Positions 1,252-14,308 of a stretch of DNA of 16,539 nucleotides are shown piece after piece. The stretch is from a virus: UHGV virus genome UHGV-0073462, one strand, 5' to 3'. Below the pieces are notes generated by a model that worked only from the letters and a program-made list of their open reading frames with translations, did no database searches and had not been told where the DNA came from. Every line of letters begins with the position of its first letter. Position 1 is the first letter of the stretch. The translations under genes and the position numbers were made by a program.

Positions 1252-1785
1252 TTATCTGTCGATTCCCCAGCACGCCAGAGCGCTCTCCTGGTCACGACGG
1301 GATACCTGACCATAACAGTTATTTGAGCGAATACGGCAGTCCCTGCCACCGTCCTTAATCCACCAGCGAATCGCCTCACACGCTCCCCTGCGATCGCCTG
1401 CATTAATTCGTTTATAAAACGTCGACGGGAAACACTTACCGGGACCAATGTTATACGGACAGAATGACGCGATCCCCGCTTTCTGGGGTTCGGTCAGCGG
1501 CACTCTGATGTTTTTCTCCACCCACGCCAGCGCTTTATCACGCTCAATGGCGTTAACCTGGTCGCATTTTTCCTTCGACAACTTCATGCCCGGAACGACA
1601 GGTTTGCCATCCACCACCGTGGCACCCCGGCAGATGGTCCATATACCAGAACCATCACGGTATGCTGTGGTGTGGTTACCTTCTTTTTCATCCAGAAACT
1701 GGTCGAGAATGTCAGGCGCAGATGCGCCTGCAGTAATCAGCGCCAGAATGGCAGCCGACAGGCCGTATCTGATTTTTGCGTTCAT
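1252..1785 (-). CDS. R: SAR endolysin, T4-type lysozyme (GH24), phage 21 R-like
   Basis: 177-aa ORF with ATG at 1785. N-terminal hydrophobic signal-anchor-release segment (MNAKIRYGLSAAILALITAGASAPD). E-x8-D-x5-T catalytic spacing in EGNHTTAYRDGSGIWT, typical of T4-like lysozymes. Sits in a lysis cassette with a pinholin. Confidence 0.85.
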   Translation of the reverse strand: MNAKIRYGLSAAILALITAGASAPDILDQFLDEKEGNHTTAYRDGSGIWTICRGATVVDGKPVVPGMKLSKEKCDQVNAIERDKALAWVEKNIRVPLTEPQKAGIASFCPYNIGPGKCFPSTFYKRINAGDRRGACEAIRWWIKDGGRDCRIRSNNCYGQVSRRDQESALACWGIDR

Positions 1786-2018: not shown

Positions 2019-2549
2019 TCAAGGCTGCTGAAGATGCTCTTTCAACAGTGAAGCGCAGCTTAGATGCGCCGCGCGATCAAGAATAGTTTCTTTCATTTCA
2101 TCTGCTGCAAGCACCTCATTTTTTGTTGGGGTGCTTTTTTTCAATTCAGCGATATAGCACTCCAGTTTTTCAATGCGTGATTCAATATCATCGTTTTCTG
2201 ACCGCAATGCCGTCGGTGGCGTCTTCAGAGAACCAGTAATTATTCCCGGTAGTTTTCCTCTGTAGGTTATCAACACATCCTGCGCCTCTAAAATTATGGG
2301 GCGCTTTTCCGGCGACTGCTCATCCCCTTCACATAACCCGGCAGCAATATCCATGAAAAACTGCTTCGCCTGCTTTTTCGCCTCAGCTTCGTAAAATTCC
2401 AGCGTGGCACCTTCAGTACGGTCAAGACTAATCGCCACATATGGCGACAACAACGACGGCTGCCCGGCAATTTCCAGTGCCACAGTAACAGTAATCTTAT
2501 CCGGGTAATTATTTATCCCTTTAACAACCAGTTCGTATTGTTTATTCAT
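2019..2549 (-). CDS. hypothetical protein (176 aa) encoded between holin and endolysin
   Basis: ATG at 2549 with SD GGAGAG 6 nt upstream; this SD overlaps the holin stop (TAG at 2553-2555), so it is likely co-translated with S. No motif I recognise; C-terminal part predicted helical. Possibly related to small prophage proteins found between holin and lysozyme in some E. coli prophages, but I cannot verify this. Confidence 0.6.
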   Translation of the reverse strand: MNKQYELVVKGINNYPDKITVTVALEIAGQPSLLSPYVAISLDRTEGATLEFYEAEAKKQAKQFFMDIAAGLCEGDEQSPEKRPIILEAQDVLITYRGKLPGIITGSLKTPPTALRSENDDIESRIEKLECYIAELKKSTPTKNEVLAADEMKETILDRAAHLSCASLLKEHLQQP

Positions 2550-2552
2550 CGT

Positions 2553-2768
2553 CTACTCTCCACGCGCCGCCTTACGCCGGTCTTCTTTAATTTTGAAATA
2601 CAGGTTCGTCAGATATGTCAGCAGACCAAACAGCAGACTCCCCAGCACGCCTATTGCCGCCCACTGAGACGGGGAAACCCTGTCCAGCAACTGCAGGAAC
2701 CAGTAGCCCGTTCCCACCGCTGACGTGGTGTATGACACACCTGTTGTGATTTTTTCCATCTGGTACAT
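2553..2768 (-). CDS. S: class II holin (pinholin), phage 21 S-like, with dual-start motif
   Basis: 71-aa product [71 protein letters not shown] closely resembles the S21 pinholin (two TMDs, charged C-terminal tail). Met1/Met4 dual starts fit the antiholin/holin pair. SD GGGAG upstream. Confidence 0.85.
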
Positions 2769-2843
2769 ACCCCGTCTCCCGCAATCCGGAAGCTCACAAC
2801 AACAAGAGGGGCATCAGCTCACACCGACAGCCCCTGCGCATGG

Positions 2844-3113
2844 TTACATCATCATTTCGCCGTCAGGCTGAGGCTCACTGCCACCATCAGGCTGAGACAC
2901 GACACCATCTGAAACAGCACTGTCACCCGCACCGTCTTCAGGCCCGTGAGCAGCCGTTACCCCCAGCAGTTCATCAAGAATGGCATCCACTTCAGCATCA
3001 AGACGCGCCTCAAGATTCTGACGAAGTTGCTGTTTCAGTGCGCTCCTGACTTCTTCAGAGCGCAGAACATCCTTCACTGCTTCAGCAGTGACCAGCGATT
3101 TTATTTCTGACAT
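2844..3113 (-). CDS. hypothetical acidic, helical protein (about 89 aa) upstream of holin
   Basis: The track ORF 2844..3227 begins at a TTG; the first ATG (MSEIKSLVTAEAV...) is at 3113. Product is helical with an acidic, Gly/Asp/Pro-rich tail. No recognised domain; start uncertain. Confidence 0.4.
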   Translation of the reverse strand: MSEIKSLVTAEAVKDVLRSEEVRSALKQQLRQNLEARLDAEVDAILDELLGVTAAHGPEDGAGDSAVSDGVVSQPDGGSEPQPDGEMMM

Positions 3114-3150
3114 GGTATTTTCTCGTTGAAAGGTGTTGTTAAGAAAGTTG

Positions 3151-3333
3151 CTACGGAATGAGAGGCTCTTCGGGTTTTGTTCCGGCTGACTGACTGGCGC
3201 TGATTTTCTCAGCGGCCCTTTTGTCAATCTGTCTGCACCAGAAATCTCTCACGACTCTGTACCCACCAGAAAGAAGATACAGCACACAAACTGCTGTACA
3301 GAAATACAATAAAATAAGCTGTAAAAATGTCAT
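3151..3333 (-). CDS. small membrane protein (60 aa), unknown function
   Basis: ATG at 3333 with strong SD GGAGGG about 5 nt upstream. N-terminal hydrophobic helix (LQLILLYFCTAVCVLYLLSGGY) followed by a charged tail. Confidence 0.5.
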   Translation of the reverse strand: MTFLQLILLYFCTAVCVLYLLSGGYRVVRDFWCRQIDKRAAEKISASQSAGTKPEEPLIP

Positions 3334-3418
3334 TATCCCTCCCAGTTATTGATATGGTGTTGACATCGTTAATACCTGTTGGTTAAAAAAGCGTCCTGCA
3401 TGTTTTGCTTTGGATGTG

Positions 3419-3470
3419 ACAACCTTTGCCGCCGGTTTCTTGTTTTCCCTTTCCCGGCGGCATTTTTTTA
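3419..3470 (+). terminator. plus-strand intrinsic-terminator-like hairpin inside the minus-strand late operon
   Basis: GCCGCCGG...CCGGCGGC 8-bp stem with an 18-19-nt loop, followed on the plus strand by ATTTTTTTA. On the minus strand it is not followed by a T-run. Confidence 0.4.
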
Positions 3471-3476
3471 TCCTGC

Positions 3477-5420
3477 TTACGCGTTATTCACTTCCACCAC
3501 AATGCTGTCAATCAGCACCGGGTATGTTGCACCGTTAGTGATATCGGTCACGCGCAACTTGTCTGCCGTAAACGTGCCGACCGGAGACTGCGACAGCATG
3601 AACGGTGTCCCGTCCTGTCCATCAATCACCGGCGTCACCTGAATGCTGTTATTACCGGCAAAACGGAATGCCAGCGTATGCCATTCGTTATTAAATGCAC
3701 CGAATGAACCCAGCTTCGTGTTCTGGCCTGGATTACCCTTGTGGTACATCACGTTAAGGTCTGTGGCATCGCTCTGAACATAAAACGATGCCAGCAGGTT
3801 ATGACCGGCATTACCTTCCAGGGTAACCCCTTGTGGCAGGGCAGAAACCGGCCAGTACAGCGCCAGTGCGTACTGATTAGCCGTCAGTGTGCCGTCAACC
3901 TTAAACCGGCAGCTGACAAGACCACCTTTACCCAGCAGGTCTGCACCATTACCGGCATCATGCTCAAGGTACCAGGAGGATTTACCTGTTTCCTTGGTCA
4001 GTTTCATTGCCTTACCCCCGCTGGCTCCGGCATCATCCACGATTTGAGACTTGCCACCACCGGCAGTCCAGCCCTGTGGTGCCAGCTGTCCTTCAGACTC
4101 TGATGCCCGGTAAGCAAGCAACGTGCTCATTGTCGTTGTGTCAGCCGGTGGTGTGGACGGTTTTGATGGTGTATCAGGTGACGGCTTCTCATCCGGTGGT
4201 GTCACGGTCTGCCCGCGCATCAGTTCAGCCGTGCGCCCTGCATGGAGCATAATAGCTGAGGCCAGACGGTCTGAAATGACGCCCCTGCGTGCCCATGAGC
4301 TGAAATGGCTGTCACGCTGTGTCGAAACAAAACTGCCCTGGGTTCGGGATGCCGCACCGTAATACCCGACAGCCACAATATCCGGGTCTTCCGCCGGAGC
4401 ATTCGTTGGCGTGTTCTGTCCATTCTCATCCGTCAGGAACGGTACAAAGAAAATATTCTGTGCGGTCAGATTTTTATATGCGCCATAGACTGTTTCATAC
4501 TGCGTGGCATACGTGTTTTTCCAGTAATACGTGGTATCACCACAAATCCACGGCACCGTGCCAGCATTTCCACTCACGCACTGCGCTGCAAGTGGAGACA
4601 GGTCGGTTCTGAACTGCTGAACCATGGCTGTGAATAAACCATTATGCTGCTGACTTCCTGAAGCAAGGTCTGCCTCTCCCTGCATCCATACCACAGCCAG
4701 AAGTTTATTTTTCGGGTTCTTCGCCAGCGCCGCTCTGGTGCGACTGAGCAGGTCCTGATACAGGGGTTTACCGGCTCCCCAGCGTGAAGAATCAGCGGAA
4801 GCACCGCTGACCTCACTGAATGAGCCGTCGGCTCCGGTGGTAAATGCCGAACTGCCACGGCAACAGGACACCAGAAGTATACCGGCATTCTGCGGGATAT
4901 AAGGCAGCAGTTTTTTGGCAATATGCAGCCCCTGACCGACAGTCCCGTACTGGCCCTTACTCAGGTCTGCATGAGGATGGTTAAGTGCGCTCATGTCCTG
5001 AACATCATGCAGACAGTGGTCTGCCGGAATAACGTCATTGTATGCACAGGTATCACCACCCGGCGTCACAGTGCTGCGACGGGCCAGCTGCTTAATACGG
5101 GAGTCAGGTCGATCATAGGTCTGCGGCAGAGGAAGCCCCTCACCATAGGCCATACCGTTCGACTGCCCGGCCAGGGGAATAACGTAGTAATACTCCGGTT
5201 CAGTGATAGCCACTCCCGGAGAGCCACCAGCCCCTGTGTCGGGCACAACCACAGGCGTGGTCACATCACCCTCTGCGGCAATAGCCTGCATCAGTGTATA
5301 AGGAGTGATAGCCACAGGACTGCCAAATGGCTGCCACCCCTCCTTCAGTTTTTGAGTCAGTCGCTCCGCAAGGTCTGACGGCGACGCCGCCCTGACCACA
5401 TCGTAGTGTTTAAATGTCAT
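3477..5420 (-). CDS. nanS: prophage sialate O-acetylesterase (NanS-p / YjhS family; DUF1737 N-terminus plus SASA/SGNH esterase domain)
   Basis: 647-aa ORF with ATG at 5420 and SD GGGAGG. N-terminus MTFKHYDVVRAASPSDLAERLTQKLKEGWQPFG is DUF1737-like. Esterase motif YYYVIPLAGQSNGMAYGEGLPLP contains the GQSN catalytic-serine block. Position between Q/late leader and the holin matches NanS-p genes of Stx-type lambdoid prophages. Confidence 0.85.
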   Translation of the reverse strand: MTFKHYDVVRAASPSDLAERLTQKLKEGWQPFGSPVAITPYTLMQAIAAEGDVTTPVVVPDTGAGGSPGVAITEPEYYYVIPLAGQSNGMAYGEGLPLPQTYDRPDSRIKQLARRSTVTPGGDTCAYNDVIPADHCLHDVQDMSALNHPHADLSKGQYGTVGQGLHIAKKLLPYIPQNAGILLVSCCRGSSAFTTGADGSFSEVSGASADSSRWGAGKPLYQDLLSRTRAALAKNPKNKLLAVVWMQGEADLASGSQQHNGLFTAMVQQFRTDLSPLAAQCVSGNAGTVPWICGDTTYYWKNTYATQYETVYGAYKNLTAQNIFFVPFLTDENGQNTPTNAPAEDPDIVAVGYYGAASRTQGSFVSTQRDSHFSSWARRGVISDRLASAIMLHAGRTAELMRGQTVTPPDEKPSPDTPSKPSTPPADTTTMSTLLAYRASESEGQLAPQGWTAGGGKSQIVDDAGASGGKAMKLTKETGKSSWYLEHDAGNGADLLGKGGLVSCRFKVDGTLTANQYALALYWPVSALPQGVTLEGNAGHNLLASFYVQSDATDLNVMYHKGNPGQNTKLGSFGAFNNEWHTLAFRFAGNNSIQVTPVIDGQDGTPFMLSQSPVGTFTADKLRVTDITNGATYPVLIDSIVVEVNNA

Positions 5421-5547: not shown

Positions 5548-5602
5548 TTATGAATTCTGGTTAAAATCCATTCGATTATAAAAATGTATATCTCATGCTG
5601 TT

Positions 5603-5628
5603 GCCCGAACCCACTCGGGCTTTTTTTT
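5603..5628 (+). terminator. plus-strand intrinsic terminator (hairpin plus T8)
   Basis: GCCCGA-ACCCAC-TCGGGC hairpin followed by TTTTTTTT on the plus strand. Lies back-to-back with the minus-strand hairpin at 5641-5658. Confidence 0.5.
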
Positions 5629-5633
5629 GCCCA

Positions 5634-5658
5634 CAAGAAAGCCCCTCCGGAGAGGGGC
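5634..5658 (-). terminator. intrinsic terminator at the end of repeat module B
   Basis: Minus strand: GC-rich palindromic hairpin GCCCCTCTCCGGAGGGGC followed by TTTCTTG. Confidence 0.5.
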
Positions 5659-5870
5659 TAAAGCCGCGTATCTGTATCATCATGCACATGGTGCCGGGTG
5701 CCTCCCGGTGAGTTCAGCCAGGTGCCACTAAACCCGCGTCATTCTCGTTTTGATAATCAGAGATTATACCGTCACCAGTCGCCCCTCCGCTCAGGGGGAT
5801 TCACCATGCGAAATTTTTTTAACAAATGCCCAGTCTGACAGGCAACTGTCAACTTACTGAATTGTGAGCA
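5634..5870. repeat. late-leader repeat module, copy B (direct repeat of 6116-6352)
   Basis: Blocks shared with copy A at a constant offset of about 482 bp: palindromic hairpin GCCCCTCCGGAGAGGGGC, CATGGTGCCGGGTGCCTCCCGGTGAGTTCAG, GCCCCTCCGC(T/A)CAGGGGGATTCACCATGC, and TTGAC(A/T)...CTGAATTGTGAG. Minus-strand reading runs from a TTGACA -35-like hexamer to the terminator hairpin about 200 nt downstream. Confidence 0.6.
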
Positions 5871-5932: not shown

Positions 5933-6115
5933 TGGAAGGATAGCGGTCATGTGATGCCGGTTTCCCGGTAACTCAGCACCGGTATCTGAGTCAACGTTTT
6001 CTCTACTGGGTCATTTCCGATACACCTGCCTGCTGACAGGCTTTCATCACATCTGAAAATATAGCACCCTGACTGATACTGTAGTACCCAAGGTTCCAGA
6101 AACTGTGATGTATCC

Positions 6116-6352
6116 GGCACAGAAAAGCCCCTCCGGAGAGGGGCTGGAGAGTGGCGCTATGTGCCATTGCATGGTGCCGGGTGCCTCCCGGTGAGTTCAG
6201 TATCAGCACCTGAACCCGCACAGAAAGGATAAGGGTCGGTGACAAAACACCAGTTGCTGATTGCCCCTCCGCACAGGGGGATTCACCATGCCAGTTTCTT
6301 TTAACAAACTCCCCGCAAACCAGACAACAGTCAACCGCCTGAATTGTGAGGT
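6116..6352. repeat. late-leader repeat module, copy A (direct repeat of 5634-5870)
   Basis: Same conserved blocks as copy B in the same order. The TATAAT present in copy B is replaced by CTTATC here. Flanking sequence on the Q side (about 6353-6400) is still weakly similar to the inter-module spacer, so the duplicated unit is roughly 480 bp. Confidence 0.6.
6120..6144 (-). terminator. intrinsic terminator at the end of repeat module A
   Basis: Minus strand: GCCCCTCTCCGGAGGGGC hairpin followed by TTTTCTG. Confidence 0.5.
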
Positions 6353-13151: not shown

Positions 13152-14308
13152 TTGCGCCCCCTTACCTCTGAAGGGTTCAGCGACAAATTTATGAGACTGG
13201 CCAGTAGCGCCGCGTCGTTGATGCGGTCATACAGACTTACAGCCAGCGGGGATTCGGCTTTTGCCAACATGGGATAAAGCTGCTGCAGCCAGACCTTGTG
13301 GATTACCGACAGGTGGGAGTAAAGCACGCTGGCGTTATCTGCGGCATCGCTCAGCGTGGATGGCTTTGAAAGCAGTTTTTCCATCTGGTTAAAGGCATTG
13401 ATGTATGCCTCTTTGAACCGGGCAGCACGTTTACCCGTGAAACCCATAGCAAGAAACGCAAAACCGTCTCGTGTGATTTGATAGCAAGGGAGCTTGCGTG
13501 TACCACCGTTCGGTTGATTTACCGAAATCGATGTCTCCGCAAAATTGCGGGCACAAAACTCTGGGGAACAATCCAGAGTGCGGATCTTTTTCAGCACATC
13601 GTCGTGACGCTTGGAGAAGGAGTTGGCAACAGCCAAAGAAGTGGTAACGGCCTGGCCGTTGTCAATGGTGATTTCAGGTTGAGTGAGGGCTGGGTTCGTA
13701 GCCATGATGGCAGCCTCCGTTGACAGTGAAAAACTTCCACCACCGGAAACGCCAATTTCACTGGTGGTGAACTGGACGGGGTTGGCGTAACCGGCGTCAA
13801 CGGAGACCGGCGCACCTTTCGGTGCCCCCGCCCAGCCCACCATAATCTGGATGTGAGCAAATGCGGACGATAAAAAAGACGCTGGCGCGTCATACATCGC
13901 CGTTGACAATTTCAGGACGCCAATCCCGGCACCCGCTTTATAAGGTGCCTGAACAGTGTAACGTCCCGGAATGGCAGAATCAATATGCTGGTGGTCCTTC
14001 ACACTCAACAAAATCACGCCTGAATTTCCACAAAGGACTAAAGCACTCATGCGGGTAGTCTTTGCGAAGATAGATAACGCGCTGTGTTTCTGGCTCCCAA
14101 CGAATAACATGGACATAAAGCCCTCTTCCGTCACGAAACCAGCGGTTAAGTTCCTGCACAACTCGCCCCCCACAGTCAGGTAAAGTTCTCTGTGGTTACT
14201 TACAGCCAGGTGATTTGGTAATCTGCATTCATGCCGTAACAACAGGTGTTCAGCGACGCTGACCACCAGCTGTTGCGACAAACGGTTATTTGCCGTTAAA
14301 CTATTCAT
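13148..14308 (-). CDS. Rha-domain phage regulatory protein with a roughly 200-aa N-terminal extension of unknown nature
   Basis: Residues about 205-315 (MATNPALTQPEITIDNGQAVTTSLAVANSFSKRHDDVLKKIRTL...YQITRDGFAFLAMGFTGKRAARFKEAYINAFNQME) match the Rha (Phage_pRha) domain. The ORF stays open about 600 bp upstream to an ATG at 14308 that overlaps the CII-like stop (ATGA). No other long ORF covers 13750-14308. Confidence 0.6.
   Translation of the reverse strand: MNSLTANNRLSQQLVVSVAEHLLLRHECRLPNHLAVSNHRELYLTVGGELCRNLTAGFVTEEGFMSMLFVGSQKHSALSIFAKTTRMSALVLCGNSGVILLSVKDHQHIDSAIPGRYTVQAPYKAGAGIGVLKLSTAMYDAPASFLSSAFAHIQIMVGWAGAPKGAPVSVDAGYANPVQFTTSEIGVSGGGSFSLSTEAAIMATNPALTQPEITIDNGQAVTTSLAVANSFSKRHDDVLKKIRTLDCSPEFCARNFAETSISVNQPNGGTRKLPCYQITRDGFAFLAMGFTGKRAARFKEAYINAFNQMEKLLSKPSTLSDAADNASVLYSHLSVIHKVWLQQLYPMLAKAESPLAVSLYDRINDAALLASLINLSLNPSEVRGRK

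Follow-up and report, generated by a model that had tools for sequence, protein, structure and literature searches.

The DNA analysed here, UHGV virus genome UHGV-0073462 (16,539 nucleotides, hereafter the window), is the late region of an Escherichia coli lambdoid prophage read on the minus strand, and it carries two small open reading frames (ORFs), of 60 and 89 amino acids, between a NanS-p-type esterase gene (nanS-p) and the gene of an S21-type pinholin (S) (Table 1). These ORFs are almost certainly real accessory genes that are transcribed together, very probably late, and that belong to the Pfam families DUF1378 and DUF826, respectively. Both share their direction with nanS-p, S and R, and their placement between nanS-p and S in the late region, as given in a preliminary description of this DNA, is correct; late expression agrees with the reported induction of nanS-p (PMC10462455).

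Family membership was established with profile searches, the Pfam gathering cut-off being 25 bits for either family. The 60-residue product matched DUF1378 (PF07125) with 123.5 bits (E 3.9e-36), residues 1-59 covering positions 1-59 of the 59-position model, and the 89-residue product matched DUF826 (PF05696) with 112.1 bits (E 1.4e-32), residues 1-73 aligning with positions 1-73 of 75; they also matched phrog_494 and phrog_311, respectively. By these matches each is a full member of its family and differs from it in nothing, and no function is assigned to the DUF1378 family. That the preliminary description recognised no motif in either protein is understandable, but both fall into already catalogued families; nothing about the locus is anomalous. 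Consistent with these assignments, RefSeq annotates both genes as DUF1378 and DUF826 in genomes that are 99.6-99.7% identical over this kilobase.

ORFs of such size commonly arise by chance, 75 ORFs of at least 30 amino acids being present in the first 6.5 kb of the window, and selection on the coding sequences was estimated as the median pairwise ratio of nonsynonymous to synonymous substitution rates (dN/dS) over 51 distinct coding sequences for DUF1378 and 44 for DUF826. The ratio was 0.14 in the predicted transmembrane segment and 0.24 in the juxtamembrane helix of DUF1378, and 0.21 in the helical head and 0.45 in the tail of DUF826; taken over both proteins, the conserved cores lie at 0.14-0.24 and the tails at 0.45-0.55. 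Both genes are under purifying selection, and both reading frames are conserved in homologous prophages. Suppressed synonymous variation in the 3' half of DUF1378 was also considered as a sign of a hidden element, and was dropped as a patchy signal from 16 close relatives only.

The annotation of DUF826 is not uniform among records, some of which carry versions of 127-139 amino acids, such as orf43 of VT2-Sakai, a 139-amino-acid ORF spanning the region, and the phrog_8301 profile, which matches both proteins. Together with rare proteins in which DUF1378 and DUF826 are fused (P0201 and P0234), these records are what could be cited for the notion that the two ORFs are not two genes at all, being either chance ORFs or parts of one longer gene. 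We regard the probability of this as negligible, since dN/dS is well below 1 for both short ORFs, the fusions are near-singletons (P0201 comprises one member sequence) and the upstream extension of DUF826 is not conserved: it varies from 5 to 66 codons and in most cases has no ATG, it overlaps DUF1378 at the latter's 3' end in the +1 frame, and stop codons interrupt it in the copies from Citrobacter and L153. The longer versions exist because the DUF826 frame happens to stay open upstream and are hence an annotation artefact; the 89-amino-acid start is correct. The +1 frame of DUF826, the unconserved extension and the rarity of the fusions rule out that the two genes make up one long ORF or are linked by programmed frameshifting.

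Table 1. Features of the window at and around the DUF1378-DUF826 locus.
Feature	Position	Strand	Basis and remarks
NanS-p-type sialate O-acetylesterase	3477-5420	-	Pfam DUF1737+SASA+DUF6645; synteny in lambdoid and Mu-like loci; usual travel companion of the pair
Antisense unit in the nanS-p/DUF1378 spacer	3360-3469	+	Promoter-like motif, fold, recurrence; outside the two ORFs
Shine-Dalgarno sequence GGGAGGG of the DUF1378 gene	3337-3343	-	Direct sequence reading; ATG 3 nt downstream
DUF1378 gene, 60 amino acids	3151-3333	-	PF07125, phrog_494, RefSeq name, hydropathy and charge, AlphaFold2, dN/dS
Spacer between DUF1378 and DUF826, 37 nt	3114-3150	-	
DUF826 gene, 89 amino acids	2844-3113	-	PF05696, phrog_311, AlphaFold2, isoelectric point, dN/dS, alignments
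Terminator-like stem-loop and U-rich tract	2807-2836 and 2795-2806	-	Fold; starts 8 nt after the DUF826 stop, upstream of S
S21-type pinholin, dual start M1/M4	2553-2768	-	PF04971 (E 7e-33); neighbour, outside the pair
YdfR/DUF1327 gene	2019-2549	-	Between holin and endolysin
Lysozyme with hydrophobic N-terminus	1252-1785	-	

The strong Shine-Dalgarno sequence ascribed earlier to the gene of the 60-residue protein (ATG start, 6.8 kDa, isoelectric point 8.6) is confirmed, and the single transmembrane domain agrees with the prediction made here. Its Kyte-Doolittle hydropathy reaches a maximum of 2.37 over residues 3-21; there are no charges N-terminal of the hydrophobic stretch, and residues 26-45 carry six Lys/Arg against three Asp/Glu. 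Because of this charge distribution the positive-inside rule predicts an N-out/C-in orientation, and DUF1378 would be a single-pass (bitopic) inner-membrane protein with two residues outside, a transmembrane helix at about residues 3-25, a basic amphipathic juxtamembrane helix (residues 26-45) in the cytoplasm and a variable tail. AlphaFold2 models a single helix over residues 3-49, with a predicted local distance difference test score (pLDDT) of 68, that is with moderate confidence, followed by a disordered tail. In alignments the conserved core reads MT..(L/M)LYF..V..LYL(V/L)(S/A)GGY(K/R).(I/V)R....D.A..K, and selection is strongest on the transmembrane helix, whose very low dN/dS suggests that it serves as a specific surface for interactions and does more than anchor the protein. 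The family member at locus L155 (5001-5162) shows a sub-threshold Pfam match to OAD_gamma (PF04277; E 1e-3, 20 bits against a cut-off of 27), a single-transmembrane subunit that anchors soluble partners, a resemblance that is probably only compositional.

The DUF826 product (9.4 kDa, isoelectric point 4.13, 19 Asp/Glu against 7 Lys/Arg) is, as described before, acidic and helical. The predicted architecture is that of a cytoplasmic protein whose first 50 residues or so (1-51) form a helical head and whose remainder is a disordered acidic tail. AlphaFold2 places helices at residues 4-7, 10-17 and 20-49 and disorder over residues 50-89; its pLDDT exceeds 90 for residues 21-50. Conservation within the family is limited to the head, and the acidic tail is variable in length or absent in distant members. 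The tail is rich in Pro, Gly and Ser and ends in two or three hydrophobic residues, MMM here and MMM, MML or TML among the copies. The ribosome-binding site is weak (GAG at -11 to -9). At three loci (L161 4974-5433, L165 5221-5680 and L173 1674-2133) DUF826 is cut after residue 51 and fused to an esterase-like fragment resembling, at 36% identity, the C-terminus of a different esterase type; this truncation looks like a scar of intragenic recombination.

The opposite charges of the two proteins, that is the basic tail of DUF1378 and the excess of acidic residues in DUF826, suggest an anchor-partner relation. The same build could be read in another way, with DUF1378 as a small membrane toxin that would inhibit or depolarise a target in the membrane, in the style of Hok or phiX174 protein E, and would be held by DUF826 as a cytoplasmic antidote or chaperone until late. 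A protein of 50-60 residues with a conserved N-terminal transmembrane domain and a basic tail would fit such a toxin, and the gene of an acidic partner lies immediately downstream; nevertheless, we consider a toxin and antidote very improbable, given that DUF1378 is stably maintained without DUF826 in BUCT709-like phages and in L155 and that no similarity to known toxin families was found.

The genomic contexts of the two genes were compared at about 180 loci (L numbers). About 80 IMG/VR viral contigs show practically no departure from the order esterase, DUF1378, DUF826, S21, (YdfR), R, and the spacing is kept as well, with esterase identities ranging from 46 to 92%; conservation and synteny, which had been proposed earlier as a check on the two frames, thus hold among related prophages. 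In Mu-like E. coli prophages a SASA/DUF6645 esterase, DUF1378 and DUF826 stand between the tail-fibre assembly gene and com/mom, and the small proteins there, although intact, share no more than about 40-50% identity with their counterparts in the window; one DUF1378 variant of these prophages, P0278, has 861 indexed blocks in the contig collection. A third arrangement occurs in another myovirus type (L151, L152 and L154), where the genes follow tail-fibre genes, the esterase is absent and the order is reversed, namely DUF826 (56 amino acids, without the acidic tail), a hairpin and DUF1378 (50 amino acids). Because the pair co-occurs in three arrangements, one of them reversed and without the esterase, DUF1378 and DUF826 form a two-gene module in E. 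coli, though DUF1378 can stand alone. The gap between the two genes is 19-40 nt in nearly all lambdoid, Citrobacter and Mu-like copies, and this short conserved spacing implies that they are co-transcribed.

In E. coli the usual companion of the pair is the NanS-p esterase, the three genes forming a cargo cassette that ends in a terminator hairpin and is placed at late-operon junctions, which in lambdoid prophages means ahead of S and in Mu-like prophages behind the tail-fibre genes. In the Mu-like cassettes L085 (2594-5246) and L088-L093 (2781-5473) the esterase consists of SASA and DUF6645, without DUF1737, and at several Mu-like loci the C-terminal part of the esterase is 89% identical to that of the window, against 40-50% for the small genes, a contrast that, from the sequences, indicates recombination within the cassette between lambdoid and Mu-like backbones. 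The joint movement of esterase, DUF1378 and DUF826 as a block between these backbones, with the small genes intact at 40-50% identity, would be expected of accessories to the esterase, which lacks a signal peptide and might need tethering, release or regulation. The phage records point the same way in number, 307-309 of them carrying the pair and 342 the esterase C-terminal domain. Such an accessory role is nonetheless distinctly improbable, because the pair persists without any esterase in L151, L152 and L154, DUF1378 occurs alone in lysis cassettes, DUF826 relatives occur alone, esterase-plus-S21 phages such as L097 and NC_011356 lack the pair, and the Mu-like esterases lack DUF1737, yet the pair is retained.

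The occurrences of single genes bear on the link to lysis; as regards the holin, the evidence is mixed. In phages BUCT708/709 and 24 IMG/VR contigs DUF1378 stands alone as the last gene of an S21-R-Rz/Rz1 cassette, its ATG overlapping the Rz stop codon (ATGA) and a variable tailspike gene following; this phage type gave no match in E. coli genomes. In L155 DUF1378 comes after Rz/Rz1, and the cassette there contains Phage_holin_8, Phage_holin_3_7 and a GH19 endolysin. DUF1378 accompanies three different holin/endolysin types, which speaks against a role specific to pinholins; its presence at the end of lysis cassettes with different holins in two unrelated phage groups counts for a link to lysis. 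By its gene content, L155 also rules out a specificity of DUF1378 for signal-anchor-release (SAR) endolysins or for pinholins, and the module is specific to neither the S21 pinholin, SAR endolysins nor the esterase. Distant DUF826 relatives (59-79 amino acids; L086 2898-5180, L180 4001-6944 and L182 1155-4098) occur alone between Rz and the terminase, directly after the former or before the latter, beside a methyltransferase cassette, a conserved block of four genes (about 178 amino acids, 287 amino acids, Methyltransf_23 and 212 amino acids), the relative and the block occurring in either order.

Both families are small and essentially limited to Escherichia, Shigella and close relatives. Of 5426 complete E. 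coli genomes, 1059 gave a match to the pair in a DNA search, the copy number per genome having a median of 2 and a maximum of 7, and tblastn on phage records detected DUF1378 in 309 and DUF826 in 307, nearly all of them Stx-converting (Shiga toxin, Stx) or related lambdoid phages. Clustering at 90% identity gave 140 DUF1378 and 106 DUF826 clusters, and the DUF826 profile returned only 52 matches at E<=1e-3 from 1.84 billion representative proteins. A Citrobacter braakii prophage keeps the order esterase-DUF1378-DUF826-S21-R-Rz, its DUF1378 being about 45% identical. Scans of one genome per species (GTDB) with strict patterns matched neither family, which shows only that the distribution is narrow and patchy.

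Late expression of the pair is very probable from the gene layout and from the behaviour of nanS-p, which has been reported to rise by 1-2.4 log after mitomycin C (PMC10462455). In all contexts examined the pair is located inside late operons or at their ends, and a consensus scan found no sense-strand promoter upstream of it. In other lineages start/stop overlaps or very short gaps to late genes often leave no room for a promoter; in L151 a gene of the pair begins 28 nt after the tail-fibre assembly gene. In nearly all contexts examined DUF826 is followed by a hairpin, whose stem sequence differs between them; the Mu-like loci have the canonical form (A-tract, GC stem, T-tract), and those of the VT2-Sakai type show a T6 run. 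In the window this hairpin marks the 3' edge of the esterase-DUF1378-DUF826 unit, and its recurrence in nearly all related loci suggests that transcription not modified by Q would stop short of the holin gene.

These features also bear on the possibility that the genes are superinfection-exclusion or lysogenic-conversion cargo, DUF1378 sitting in the inner membrane and, like other small membrane proteins of prophages, blocking DNA entry or another step of an incoming phage with DUF826 as a helper. Every site of the genes is a known moron junction (the Q/stx/esterase-S interval, the Rz-terminase interval, or the prophage end after the tail-fibre genes), the unit ends in a terminator hairpin, the genes are missing from this junction in related phages, other cargo adjoins (esterase, acetyltransferase and Mom/Dam methylases), and a genome may hold up to 7 copies. 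Against this reading, no sense-strand promoter was found ahead of the genes, and the overlap with the Rz stop in BUCT709-type phages and the 28-nt gap in L151 make expression look strictly late and not that of a repressed prophage. In addition, the PADLOC models gave 0 families at E<=1 for both proteins and for their Mu-like and BUCT709 relatives. We consider an exclusion role unlikely, while giving it real weight.

Taking these results together, we tentatively propose, at rather less than an even chance, that DUF1378 and DUF826 constitute a dispensable late membrane module with a non-essential role in the terminal, lysis-related phase. In this proposal DUF1378 would insert N-out/C-in into the inner membrane, its conserved helix would engage a conserved membrane target or self-associate, and its basic tail would tether the acidic DUF826 to the membrane, so that the two proteins may modulate the state of the membrane or the timing of lysis late in the lytic cycle, independently of the holin type. 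The pair would be neither an essential lysis component nor an antiholin specific to S21. The suggestion in the preliminary description that small membrane proteins beside a holin could act in lysis timing or exclusion is a reasonable hypothesis, to be loosened from a partner of the pinholin to a portable late membrane module.

Several observations weigh against this proposal. About 130 of the 436 S21-holin phage records lack the pair, which is therefore dispensable for pinholin lysis. It is absent, for instance, from mEp332, Stx1_132418 and YYZ-2008, which have S21 with or without the esterase, and from the S21 cassettes of L097, L098 and NC_011356, so that otherwise related phages differ in presence or absence at the same junction. 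The Mu-like copies adjoin tail-fibre genes far from the lysis genes, with no holin nearby, and at L151 and L163 the genes likewise lie beside tail-fibre genes and far from lysis genes. The identity combinations among the IMG/VR contigs indicate that DUF1378 and DUF826 recombine independently of each other. All of these positions are also typical places for cargo genes of other kinds, so a location beside lysis genes may mean little, and position alone does not justify assigning the pair to the pinholin system. Searches of Pfam, PHROGs, NCBIfam, PADLOC, PDB sequences and PDB folds detected no sequence or fold similarity to a holin, antiholin, releasin or characterised protein; the PDB profile search returned only chance-level matches (E 0.2-0.25), and Foldseek, NCBIfam and PADLOC gave no usable match. 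Finally, a literature search found the families named only in PMC10462455, as unknown proteins between nanS-p and S; a second apparent mention of DUF1378 proved to be a typographical error for DUF1738, and a search by locus tags returned unrelated matches only.

A stronger form of the proposal is that DUF1378, with DUF826 where present, represents a new class of late lysis regulators independent of holin type, in which a minimal N-out/C-in peptide, portable between lambdoid, Mu-like and other phages, would time the failure of the inner membrane, as an analogue, though no relative, of the Mu releasin or of the T4 pair RI/RIII. We consider this doubtful; if true, such a class in Stx phages would influence the timing of Shiga-toxin and esterase release.

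Hundreds of sequenced Stx phages carry the pair, placed between their lysis genes and the Shiga-toxin/esterase region, and if it tunes lysis timing or membrane state it would affect the amount of toxin and phage released by an induced enterohaemorrhagic E. coli cell. If the proteins are exclusion factors, the pair would instead shape which prophages accumulate in one strain. The present comparison extends the range of DUF1378 beyond Escherichia-type lambdoid prophages to Mu-like prophages, BUCT709-like phages and a holin_8/GH19 lysis cassette, and DUF1378 is probably the informative experimental handle, since it also occurs alone in the lysis cassettes of unrelated phages.

Besides the two genes, the 143-nt spacer between nanS-p and DUF1378 contains an antisense unit composed of a promoter-like motif (TTGACA at 3360-3365 and TTAAAA at 3383-3388, separated by 17 nt), a body of about 40 nt, a 9-bp GC stem (3427-3435/3454-3462) and a T7 run (3463-3469), with a fold z-score of -4.5. 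Among lambdoid and Mu-like loci 34 distinct spacer sequences share this layout, with several unrelated sequences as the body and with stems that differ in sequence; the unit had no Rfam match. Judged from motif, fold and recurrence, the unit is probably a small RNA (sRNA) gene, and it may be one of the published Pas (PasA/PasC) or EcOnc prophage sRNAs. PasA and PasC have been placed in the esterase-holin interval of NC_011356 (preprint 10.64898/2026.05.13.724894), the representative PasA phage, in which that interval is a 447-nt gap and both ORFs are absent. The same 447-nt non-coding gap replaces the pair in the esterase-plus-S21 phages L097 (3092-3538) and L183 (NC_011356; 2474-2920), where it opens with the same antisense unit and closes, immediately before S, with a sense-strand hairpin and a T6 run. 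One interval thus appears to be occupied alternatively by the sRNA region or by the DUF1378-DUF826 pair.

Along the minus strand the genes of the locus follow each other in the order NanS-p-type esterase, DUF1378, DUF826, S21-type pinholin, YdfR/DUF1327 gene and lysozyme. The hydrophobic N-terminus of the lysozyme leads us to read it as a putative SAR endolysin. The YdfR/DUF1327 gene is a further uncharacterised gene within the lysis cassette; it encodes 176 amino acids here, and related loci cover about 112-176 residues of YdfR, or lack YdfR in some cases. Further upstream, Rfam matches at gathering level were obtained at 5573-5625 (+), 5629-5838 (-), 6115-6320 (-), 13760-13847 (-) and 13872-13948 (-); they comprise AsxR, whose match sits exactly at its 63-bit cut-off, and two STnc100 copies upstream of nanS-p, and, still further upstream, a C4 antisense RNA and isrK. 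ARAGORN found no tRNA genes in the window; a 99.7% identical relative has tRNA-Arg, tRNA-Arg and tRNA-Ile genes upstream of the esterase.

With respect to known lysis systems, DUF1378 fits generic holin-like traits, being small, with one transmembrane domain and a charged cytoplasmic C-terminus, and standing beside S here and after Rz/Rz1 elsewhere; these traits are not diagnostic, and Pfam, PHROGs and NCBIfam place neither protein in a holin or antiholin family, returning only DUF1378, DUF826 or PHROGs of unknown function. A parallel in design is offered by the releasin gp25 of phage Mu (DUF2730), an N-out/C-in protein that is expressed late, whose gene lies no more than five genes away from that of the endolysin and which pairs with endolysins of diverse types (Chamblee et al. 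2022, PMC9239132). Like gp25, DUF1378 is predicted to be a small late N-out/C-in protein with few periplasmic residues and a cytoplasmic C-terminal part; the two differ in that gp25 has 99 amino acids against the 50-60 of DUF1378 and that DUF1378 lies upstream of the holin in the window. Homology between them was rejected, hhalign giving a probability of 0.2% and Pfam no match to DUF2730 (PF10805).

The antiholin pair RI and RIII of phage T4 combines a membrane-tethered small protein with a small helical cytoplasmic protein, both acting on lysis timing, and by analogy the DUF1378-DUF826 pair would join a membrane protein to a cytoplasmic helical one. There is no sequence similarity between the two systems; RI acts via a periplasmic domain, which DUF1378 lacks, and DUF1378 and DUF826 are not bound to one holin type. 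Small inner-membrane exclusion proteins encoded by morons, such as gp15 of HK97, are found at late-operon junctions of temperate phages. DUF1378 differs from these in having no promoter of its own that could be found, in a layout that implies late expression and in sharing no sequence similarity with them; it resembles them in being a small, predicted single-pass inner-membrane protein, in its position at a late-operon junction and in being present or absent between similar phages, and the pair shows two hallmarks of a moron, presence or absence at the same junction and a terminator hairpin downstream.

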